NCBI GenBank assembly: GCA_905178155.1
Contig: CAJINV010000095.1
Span: 1 to 8,578, forward strand
Length of the DNA: 8,578 nucleotides
Reading direction: 5' to 3'
DNA from: Amoebophrya sp. A120
Taxonomy: Eukaryota; Protista; Dinoflagellata
The notes under the pieces: model-generated
Told to the model about the DNA's origin: nothing
What the model saw: only the letters and a program-made list of their open reading frames with translations
Database searches by the model: none
Program-made: the position numbers and the translations under genes
Shown: one piece after another, positions 5,801 to 7,376 of the stretch
How positions within the stretch are numbered: the stretch's first letter is position 1
Layout of the letters: every line of letters starts with the position of its first letter

Positions 5801-7376
5801 CCGGTGTTGCGCAGATTTGCGCCGGGATCAAGGACCGCATCACCTTGGGAAACCTGGACGCCAAGCGCGACTGGGGCCTATCAAATGCAAAAATGTCTGG
5901 GTCTGGAAGATTGCGAGATTGGTCATGCTTGTCTGGCATGACCAAAAAGTTTGTGATGCGTGTCCAAGAAGAGACCCTTTTGCTTGTCCTGCAAATAAAA
6001 CGCAGTTTGTCATGCGAAAAACGCAACACAAAGAAGCGCAGATATTTCTCATGCTTGGCTGTGCATTACAGAGCATTCACTACTCCCAACGCAGCATTAC
6101 AAGTTTCCAGACCCAGACATATTTGCAGTTGATAGAGCCACGCCTACGACTACGTGCGGGGCATGTGGATGATGCTGCAGCAAGACGTGCCCGAGGATTT
6201 TGTAATCGCTATGAATTGCAAAAAAGTACTATCTGATACTAGGAGAAATCGCATGACAAACTTCCTTAGCATGATGAGAAGGGAAATTTGCAATGCGGAT
6301 TTGATACCTTGAGAAGGATAACAGGAAAGTTGTATATGCATGACTGCAATTAGAAGTATAGTACCAGTGCGGTGCTTTTGCTATGCATAATCGCAACCGG
6401 GCGACAGTACTCCGTGCGCGACCTGTGCGAGCTGTCCTTCCGCATGTATCAAATGCAAATATGTCTGGGTCTGGAAACTTGTGATGCAAGGAAGGGAATA
6501 GTGCAAACACTCTAATGCGCTGCCCAGCATGACAAGTTTTGCCGTGGTTCTGACTTGCGTAATCCGCATAAGAAATTGCGTTGTTGCATGACAGGCAAGC
6601 GGAGCTCTTCGCGGCCACGCAATACAGAACTCAGAGTCATGCCAGACTAGCATGACAATCTCTCAGACCCACACATATTTGCATTTGATAGCATGGCAGG
6701 ACACCCGATCCGATGGCAGGGCAGCGGGGTGCATATGGCGTTCTCAAATGTTTACTACAGTGCTCGCTGTCACATGATTTGCCATGCAAAATCCCTGTCT
6801 CTATCCGCCTGATGTCTACAAGATCACGCGCCATCGCACGACGAATGCTGCACGCATGAGGAAAAGATCCGTTCCAAATTTGTAATGCGAGGCACGCAAA
6901 CTCCACGTCCGGCGGCCCCTATTTAGCTTCAGCTTCACTTTTGCTATTCTTGCATCACAAGTTCATGTGACAGTTATCACTGTAAGTAAGCCCATTTGAG
7001 AACTCCATAGTGCACGAAGAGGGTGTCGATACGGTCACGGGGAAGGTCGTCATCGGTGTCAGCGAGAAGTATATCCCACGAAAAAACTGTTTCACTGTGG
7101 TGATTTTGCGAGACCTGCATCACAAGTTTGTTACACATGAAACAGAAAATTTGCCATGCGCGGTTCCCAAGGGAAAACACGCTTGAAAATCCAATGTCTT
7201 GCAGGTGTAGCAAGACAAACATTTTGGTGTTTCATTTTCTGCATCACAAGTTCACAGTGAAACAGTTTTTTCTTGCGATAACGTACTACCGACCAACGGA
7301 AGTCGAGACGCTGTTGGGCGACCCAACCAAGGCGAAGAAGAAGATGGGCTGGAAGACGGAGATCGGGTACTGCTGA
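2831..7376 (+). CDS. gmd: GDP-mannose 4,6-dehydratase, 15 coding exons (approx. 2831-2854, 3077-3118, 3338-3473, 3711-3750, 4048-4087, 4374-4482, 4713-4798, 5066-5109, 5403-5460, 5794-5877, 6139-6208, 6394-6445, 6695-6732, 7014-7070, 7285-7376); true start and last exon uncertain
   Basis: The manual join is 972 nt with no internal stop: [323 protein letters not shown]. It contains the GITGQDG Rossmann motif, ASTSE (catalytic T/E), YxxxK (YAVAK), [14 protein letters not shown] and RPTEV. Junctions can slide within the 5-bp repeats. Confidence 0.95.
2856..3072. mobile_element. TIR introner, gmd intron 1 (distinct TIR)
   Basis: TATGAGAGTGCAAAACTCCCCCTC...GAGGGGGAGTTGTGCACTGTCATA (22/24); perfect TSD CACCG; splits LIT/GITG. 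Confidence 0.92.
3120..3333. mobile_element. TIR introner, gmd intron 2, family B
   Basis: TATGCAAGAAAAAAACTGTGTAAGTGTAA...TTACACTTACACACTTTTTTCCCTGGATA; TSD TCTCC/TCTCT; splits EFL/LEK. Confidence 0.9.
3475..3706. mobile_element. TIR introner, gmd intron 3, degenerate family B-like
   Basis: TATCCAAGAAAAAT...ATTATTCTTGCATA; TSD ATTCA/ATTCT; splits CSI/LEKV. Confidence 0.85.
3752..4043. mobile_element. TIR introner, gmd intron 4, family A-related
   Basis: TATGCATTGCAAACATCCCTGGAACT...AGTTCTAGGGATGTTTGCGGGGCATA; TSD GGGCA/GGGCG; splits NLG/AQSH. Confidence 0.9.
4089..4369. mobile_element. TIR introner, gmd intron 5, family A
   Basis: TACGCATTGCAAATATGTC...GACATATTTGCACCTGATA; TSD GTACA/GTAGA; splits PEY/TA. 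Confidence 0.88.
4483..4712 (+). other. canonical GT-AG spliceosomal intron (gmd intron 6)
   Basis: G|GTAAGT...CACCTCAG|G joins ELYG and KVQE; no terminal inverted repeat and no TTGTCATGC motif seen. Confidence 0.9.
4800..5061. mobile_element. TIR introner, gmd intron 7, family A
   Basis: (C)ATCAAATGTAAAAATGTCTGGGTCTGGAAG...CTTCCAGACCCAGACATTTTTACAATTGAT(A), 29/30; perfect TSD TTGGG; no AG is available at the 3' junction in any register. Confidence 0.92.
5111..5398. mobile_element. TIR introner, gmd intron 8 (distinct TIR)
   Basis: TATCCTGATTAAAAATGTTCCCACACCAGAGT...ACTCTGGTCGTGTGGGGACGTTTTTACTCAGGATA; TSD TAAAT/TAGAT; splits AVN/GILF. Confidence 0.9.
5461..5793 (+). other. GT-AG intron (gmd intron 9), A-rich acceptor
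   Basis: AAG|GTATAT...AAAAAAAG|GTG joins VTKK and VTTG; no clear TIR. Confidence 0.82.
5879..6134. mobile_element. TIR introner, gmd intron 10, family A
   Basis: TATCAAATGCAAAAATGTCTGGGTCTGGAA...TTCCAGACCCAGACATATTTGCAGTTGATA; TSD GGGCC/GAGCC; splits RDWG/HA. Confidence 0.92.
6210..6389. mobile_element. TIR introner, gmd intron 11 (degenerate TIR)
   Basis: TATGAATTGCAAAA...TTTTGCTATGCATA; perfect TSD ATCGC; splits VIA/TG. Confidence 0.86.
6447..6690. mobile_element. TIR introner, gmd intron 12, family A, inverted relative to 2559-2812 and 5879-6134
   Basis: TATCAAATGCAAATATGTCTGGGTCTG...CAGACCCACACATATTTGCATTTGATA; perfect TSD GCATG. Confidence 0.92.
6734..7009. mobile_element. TIR introner, gmd intron 13 (distinct TIR)
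   Basis: TATGGCGTTCTCAAATG...CATTTGAGAACTCCATA; perfect TSD GTGCA; splits GSGV/HEEG. Confidence 0.9.
7072..7280. mobile_element. TIR introner, gmd intron 14, family B
   Basis: TATCCCACGAAAAAACTGTTTCACTGTG...CACAGTGAAACAGTTTTTTCTTGCGATA; TSD AAGTA/ACGTA; splits EKY/YRP. Confidence 0.9.

Follow-up and report, generated by a model that had tools for sequence, protein, structure and literature searches.

The window analysed here, an 8,578-nt stretch of the marine parasitic dinoflagellate Amoebophrya sp. A120, carries a gene for GDP-mannose 4,6-dehydratase (recognized through Pfam) that is interrupted by short elements bounded by terminal inverted repeats (TIRs). One exon, 3341-3472, is 100% identical to the A120 protein P0001. 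Removal of the 12 elements in the coding region, each with one copy of its flanking repeat, and of two GT-AG introns restores a frame of 323 codons from the ATG at 2831. The restored protein agrees with P0001 at 160/160 residues, with the AT5 ortholog P0002 at 305/322, and with the A25 ortholog P0006 at 291/320. For the last ~60 ortholog residues, the P0002 tblastn matches listed include none in the window; the corresponding codons presumably lie beyond a 203-bp tandem array (4.9 copies, 7583-8578). This array and the element downstream of the last window exon probably fall within a further intron, which would start with the GT at 7367. Table 1 collects the features.

Table 1. Elements, introns and coding region in the window (positions count from its first letter)
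Feature	Positions	Strand	Remarks
Same-class element	77-399		Upstream region
Introner element	2559-2812	+	Family and orientation as 5879; duplication GACAC/GACAC; 5' UTR or intergenic
GDP-mannose 4,6-dehydratase coding region	2831-7366	+	15 exons of 24-136 nt in window
Introner element	2856-3072		Duplication CACCG/CACCG; removed in public model P0001
Introner element	3120-3333		Opposite orientation to relatives 3475 and 7072; removed in P0001
Introner element	3475-3706		Duplication ATTCA/ATTCT; conserved Leu needs right-copy base 5; removed in P0001
Introner element	3752-4043		Family and orientation as 4800; removed in P0001
Introner element	4089-4369		Starts TAC; duplication GTACA/GTAGA; removed in P0001
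Canonical GT-AG intron	4483-4712	+	Without terminal stem
Introner element	4800-5061		Starts CAT; P0001 reads in and ends
Introner element	5111-5398		Duplication TAAAT/TAGAT; conserved Asn needs left-copy base 3
Canonical GT-AG intron	5461-5793	+	Without terminal stem
Introner element	5879-6134	+	TAT...ATA; TIR ~30 nt; duplication GGGCC/GAGCC; orientation A of its family
Predicted intron of 5879	5878-6138	+	Register 4
Introner element	6210-6389		Opposite orientation to relative 7397
Introner element	6447-6690	-	5879 family in opposite orientation; duplication GCATG/GCATG
Predicted intron of 6447	6446-6694	+ (transcript)	Register 4
Introner element	6734-7009		Duplication GTGCA/GTGCA
Introner element	7072-7280		Duplication AAGTA/ACGTA; conserved Lys needs left-copy base 2
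Same-class element	7397-7545		Downstream of last window exon

Elsewhere in the window, a 63-nt direct repeat (414-476 and 1380-1442, 87% identical, 966 nt apart) begins just 3' of the most upstream element and flanks a GC-richer stretch at ~600-1300. No Rfam family was found in the window, a scan for bacterial promoters and terminators gave chance-level results that are irrelevant here, and the TIR pattern had no match in viral contigs.

In the public annotation the gene appears as two partial models, P0001 and P0135. P0001 splices five elements correctly, including the opposite-orientation pair 3120/3475, and then reads into 4800. Because the pipeline behind this model took its non-canonical intron borders from transcript alignments, P0001 is indirect evidence for splicing of both orientations. 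P0135 reads into 5879, 6210, 6447, 6734, and 7072, and so gives 5879 and 6447 no transcript support. For each model there are two accessions, on two contigs, which may reflect a duplicated locus or one that was assembled twice. Two elements depart from the TAT start: 4800 starts CAT (P0001 stops inside it), and 4089 starts TAC (P0001 removes it), a natural comparison for the importance of the first base.

All told, the window holds 15 elements of the TAT...ATA class, 149-323 nt long, each flanked by 5-bp direct repeats with at most two mismatches. The terminal 30 positions are complementary at 28 positions in 5879 and at 27 in 6447, and the motif TAT-N7-AAA is found at both ends of 5879, 6447, and 2559 (23/30 element ends in the window). 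Neither 5879 nor 6447 has GT-AG ends in any register; in the register favoured below their ends are CT-GC and GT-AT, respectively. The family of 5879 has three copies in the window, and relatives up to 94% identical occur in a related assembly. There the duplication is an exact 5-mer in 201/258 elements, and among the 193 elements whose TIRs match at no fewer than 16 of 20 positions, 151 are exact at 5 bp, as against 0-6 for other lengths. With a TIR, a fixed 5-bp target-site duplication (TSD), short length (149-323 nt), and no coding capacity, these look like MITEs (non-autonomous TIR DNA transposons).

On sequence features, the elements are the introners already published for A120. Farhat 2021 (PMC7789003), in its available parts, describes 29,850 copies with an inverted repeat of 8-20 nt or more that starts TAT-N7-AAA, a direct repeat of 3-5 nt, and a mean non-canonical intron length of 240 nt. 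Shared with the window are this inverted repeat, a 5-bp repeat, a length of ~240 nt, NT-NN ends, and repeated families; against that description the window elements show no difference in kind. The same parts of the paper report that no transposase was found in A120, and in the portion of Gozashti 2025 available some A120 introners are attributed to TIR transposons.

The elements also share an internal motif, GCAT[GCT]A[CA] or its complement, present in 53 copies in 3677 nt of elements from unrelated families and in 5 copies in the 4901 nt outside. Its role as a required two-way branch point was considered and rejected: no sense-strand copy occurs in 3120, 4089, or 5111, and the motif has neither a 3' bias nor a sense excess (51 versus 50). 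It is more likely a subterminal transposase site.

An earlier note on this DNA proposed that one element family interrupts the gene in both orientations, and the alignment bears this out. All three family members lie where that note had placed them. Over their full length, 5879-6134 and the reverse complement of 6447-6690 are identical at 185/244 positions in a global alignment (155/238 in the forward comparison). After removal of 45 terminal nt on both sides, the cores still match at 105/154 positions, so the likeness extends past the TIRs and a similarity limited to them is ruled out. The core score of 149.5 compares with a mean of 32.6 (sd 7.7, maximum 62.5) for 1000 dinucleotide shuffles, a z of ~14; the trimmed cores in forward comparison reach a z of 2.6. 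The element at 2559-2812 is a relative in the same orientation as 5879 (core 140/161). The echo in the open reading frames, a protein string MLVWHD..., recurs on the plus strand (5727..6236) and on the minus strand (6381..6662). Some details needed repair: the elements do start with TAT and end with ATA, but the quoted sequence GGTCTGGAA is not the start, since TATCAA lies ~20 nt earlier; and the duplications that flank 5879 and 6447 had gone unmentioned.

Removal of both 5879 and 6447 is needed for an intact frame, as had been claimed: retention of either brings in an in-frame stop and leaves an open reading frame of 305 or 284 aa instead of 323. By contrast, removal of 2559-2812 is not required for the frame, because this element sits upstream of the start codon. 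Two-way insertion is wider in the window than the earlier note reported, with further opposite-orientation pairs at 3120/3475 (z 10.6), 3120/7072 (z 9.3), and 6210/7397 (z 8.7).

How general this is was examined in one related assembly, in which a TIR-motif scan identified at least 138 loci (L001-L138), 80 of them with long flanks. The element detector, which recovers 15/15 window elements, returned 338 raw and 314 unique elements; on block-shuffled loci it made 9 false calls. For 130/314 elements a restored open reading frame of at least 150 codons indicated the gene strand; 20 of these were dropped where a codon-position model disagreed, leaving 110 elements in 42 loci. In this set, a subset of the 314 from a pattern-selected scan of a single assembly, copies in the two orientations relative to the gene strand number 16:15, 13:12, 8:2, and 5:3 in the families with five or more members. 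Without the codon filter the counts are 18:18, 13:12, 10:4, 6:3, and 5:1, and with open reading frames of at least 300 codons they are 8:11, 7:7, 5:1, 2:3, and 2:2. The two largest families are thus at orientation parity. Seven restored open reading frames contain one family in both orientations, and 109/110 elements would cause a frameshift or stop if retained. Pfam supports the called strand for only 4/59 flanking exons; these four, all next to members of the largest family, split 1:3 between the two orientations. For an exon in locus L050, taken up to check the cut register against orthologs, a homology search gave no relative and Pfam no placement.

Orientation parity implies that the element interior holds no directional signal that removal needs, and the sequences agree. 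Among the 110 elements, base counts are symmetric between sense and antisense strands; no 4-6-mer in the last 60 nt differs between sense and antisense beyond multiple testing (best p 0.0096 of 204); and branch-like motifs show no sense-strand enrichment (30 versus 43; 51 versus 50). Target-site bases match coding background at all five positions (p 0.20-0.91), so no proto-splice site appears to be needed. A G[TCA]-AG pair is possible in any register for only 7/110 elements, and 61/110 have no AG in any register. Drift toward a canonical AG acceptor was also considered and rejected: in the related assembly, right-copy mismatches gain AG in 2 cases, lose it in 4, and leave it unchanged in 15. 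In the window, three of the four duplication mismatches at positions 2-4 create AG in the right copy.

Where the two copies of a duplication differ, orthologs show which base the mRNA must carry, and the register of the cut can be read off. The left-copy base is required at position 2 (5879, 7072), position 3 (5111), and position 4 (4089, where the right-copy base would make a stop codon); the right-copy base is required at position 5 (3475). Of the registers, 4 alone accommodates the gene's five non-synonymous duplication mismatches. Registers 0-3 lead to a stop at codon 94, and register 5 scores 831, 1634, and 1591 against three proteins, compared with 837, 1640, and 1597 for register 4. The resulting intron is N-TAT...ATA-NNNN, with 1 nt before TAT and 4 nt after ATA. 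The five window mismatches taken alone are weak, because ~5/32 random patterns would fit some single register. Independent support comes from Table S4 of Farhat 2021 (PMC7789003; the parts available), in which all nine predominant A120 motifs are NT-NN. A codon-usage score in the related assembly, itself a weak indicator, favours the left copy in 12/16 mismatches confined to positions 1-4. A further case for the register is L026, where five detected elements interrupt a Rab-like GTPase gene: the mismatch in one duplication is non-synonymous and falls at base 4.

The cut may not be strictly fixed. At duplication position 5, 5/6 single mismatches are synonymous, as against 4/20 at positions 1-4 (post hoc Fisher p 0.01), a hint that cuts are made in register 5 as well as in register 4. 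The position-5 single mismatches occur at 3120, 3475, and 3752 in the window and in loci L011 and L054. Farhat 2021 (PMC7789003), in the parts available, likewise gives the splice position as variable or unknown (Fig. 3 legend: sites variable). Under register 4, intron phases 0, 1, and 2 are distributed 50:24:36 among the 110 elements (p 0.01 against an even split); a proto-splice-site account of this bias is not obviously applicable, because the target-site bases are without bias.

What do the two orientations have in common? The earlier note had suggested that removal depends on symmetric features, the TIR stem and the TAT/ATA ends. That the cue lies in what both orientations share is supported by the lack of any sense/antisense difference among the 110 elements; the stem itself is only a putative cue. 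Predicted folds of 5879 and 6447 do show a long terminal stem (z -8.0 and -7.1), and most other window elements also fold into hairpins, on both strands; predicted terminal-pair probability on the sense strand is 0.79-1.00 in 11/15 window elements and ~0 in the two canonical introns. Pairing nonetheless shows no sign of selection. Within the limited power that young families allow, pairing between the two ends of one element is no better than between ends exchanged within its family: 1216 versus 1226 +/- 7 pairs over positions 1-20, and 149 versus 160 +/- 5 over positions 4-7 (n=74). Mismatches on the transcript strand show no G-U bias (66 G-U versus 91 A-C; 11 versus 13 in the window). Lower pairing probabilities are seen at 3120 (0.26) and 4089 (0.50), both spliced in the public model, and at 6210 (0.02).

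The end sequence, in contrast, is kept. At position 4, 107/110 elements have C or G at both ends but only 61 are paired there; at position 7, 27/110 are paired. Since turning an inverted repeat around leaves the linear motif at its 5' end, and likewise that at its 3' end, unchanged, orientation independence needs no pairing; by the same token, the end motif could still be read directionally, because the repeat looks alike in either element orientation. A transposase-binding site would explain conservation of the motif equally well, so this conservation is no proof of reading by a splicing factor. N-TAT[C/G] presumably resembles a GTATG-type donor with a free first base, a likeness weakened by the classical donor G at intron +5, which is not enriched at 5' ends (31/110, versus 43 at 3' ends).

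These data (element anatomy, parity, a stop or frameshift on retention, and no target-site or strand-specific signal) suggest the following model. Non-autonomous, TIR-bounded elements with 5-bp target duplications would be inserted into coding exons, in either orientation, by a DNA transposase, and would be removed at the RNA level. The cut would be fixed, 1 nt 5' of TAT and 4 nt 3' of ATA, so that the excised length is exactly that of the element and a single duplication copy, and the mRNA is left without a scar. The signal recognized would be the linear TAT[C/G]-N6-AAA motif together with its reverse complement, identical on the transcript in either orientation, and the predicted hairpin may assist by bringing both ends together. 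The cutting enzyme would probably be the spliceosome; the available parts of Farhat 2021 (PMC7789003) list 83/89 spliceosomal proteins, with U1 snRNA not detected. That introners leave the pre-mRNA through a relaxed U2-type spliceosome, which would read the end motif and not GT/AG, seems to us evenly poised between right and wrong. More tentative, and rather short of an even chance, is the further step that U1-less splicing ignores GT, AG, and strand altogether, and that the end motif plus a fixed ruler (-1/+4 nt) could generate target-independent, scarless introns.

The closest competitor assigns recognition to structure: the TIR stem would join the ends, and the cuts would be set from the base of the stem whatever its sequence. 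This is possible, though on the doubtful side. The hairpin model in Fig. 4 of Farhat 2021 (PMC7789003; the parts available) takes this form, it accounts directly for orientation independence, and the long terminal stems of 5879, 6447, and most other window elements speak for it. Against it stand the swapped-end comparison, the lack of G-U bias, and the splicing of 3120 and 4089 in the public model despite their weaker pairing. An endonuclease and ligase acting without the spliceosome, a mechanism suspected for nonconventional introns of euglenids, might instead read the motif or the stem and rejoin the exons; we consider this improbable. It would suit the lack of GT, AG, or branch signals and of detected U1 snRNA, and euglenid introns with TIR and TSD-like ends are reported, in the available part of a review (PMC11282704), to leave as full-length circles. 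However, T occupies the second intron position almost without exception, as it does in GT donors, and the repeat organisation recurs in 15% of canonical A120 introns (Farhat 2021, parts available), which together suggest one machinery; moreover, non-canonical introns of Fritillaria are processed by a modified spliceosome (PMC13326754, PMC11282704; parts available).

Two other accounts are much less probable still. In one, the elements would be excised from the DNA in the transcribed stage, as ciliate internal eliminated sequences are; complete strand symmetry with transposon-type ends is what a DNA-level machine would read. Yet the favoured register is lopsided along the transcript, with -1 nt on the 5' side and +4 nt on the 3' side (4089 needs left base 4, 3475 right base 5), unlike a symmetric cut; such a directional register argues for RNA removal and against DNA excision. 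The elements are also present in two assemblies, and Farhat 2021 (PMC7789003), in the parts available, defines introners as present in DNA and absent from RNA-seq. We hold it equally doubtful that opposite-orientation copies are simply retained and the gene copy is dead. The annotation does split the gene in two, and 4800, 5879, and 6447 are not cleanly spliced; but the exons are 95% identical in protein sequence to the AT5 ortholog over 322 codons without a stop or frameshift, and one family lies both ways in the seven restored open reading frames of the related assembly.

Several related systems bear comparison. In the parts available of Roy et al. (10.1101/2020.10.14.339549), introners of Polarella glacialis and Aureococcus anophagefferens have a TIR and TSD and make introns in either orientation, as in Amoebophrya. 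They use G[TCA] donors and AG acceptors recruited from the TSD or TIR, depend on specific target sequences, and show orientation bias in all cases; in Amoebophrya, by contrast, 7/110 elements could be G[TCA]-AG, target sites match background, and the two largest families are at parity. Euglenid nonconventional introns (PMC11282704, part available) share a TIR stem, TSD-like repeats, and non-canonical junctions, but have a CAG...CTG end consensus and pyrimidine/purine junctions, whereas the Amoebophrya end consensus is TAT[C/G] and the junction bases are at background. Introns of Fritillaria borealis (PMC13326754, PMC11282704; parts available), also transposon-derived and mostly not GT-AG, set a precedent for a spliceosome altered to remove such introns; they keep the preferred ends AG-AC and AG-AT along with U1, whereas the introns of Amoebophrya are unconstrained at the first base and at the last two.

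Already known, then, are the element class and two-way introners in Polarella and Aureococcus, and the discovery value is limited to that extent. The available text and supplement text of Farhat 2021 (PMC7789003) contain nothing on element orientation (matches to the word concern gene order), nor do the available parts of Gozashti 2022, Gozashti 2025, two reviews, and Soo 2026 on orientation in Amoebophrya; a literature search whose coverage excluded most subscription journals returned no other paper on the subject. Nor did the literature searched yield the orientation parity, the independence from target sequence, the cut register, or the lack of selection on pairing in Amoebophrya; as proposed here, all four are based on DNA and ortholog comparison.

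Since 2021 it has been a question how Amoebophrya disposes of tens of thousands of introns without GT-AG. Duplications that have diverged allow the exact cut to be located; the lack of selection on pairing distinguishes motif from stem; and orientation parity, background target sites, and register turn the splicing question into sharp tests. In practical terms, the public A120 gene models are in error at introns of this kind, and reading frames as long as ~1000 codons can be restored by a simple excision rule. If true, a U1-less, motif-and-ruler mode of splicing would mean that any such insertion, in any coding sequence and in either orientation, could be removed without a scar.
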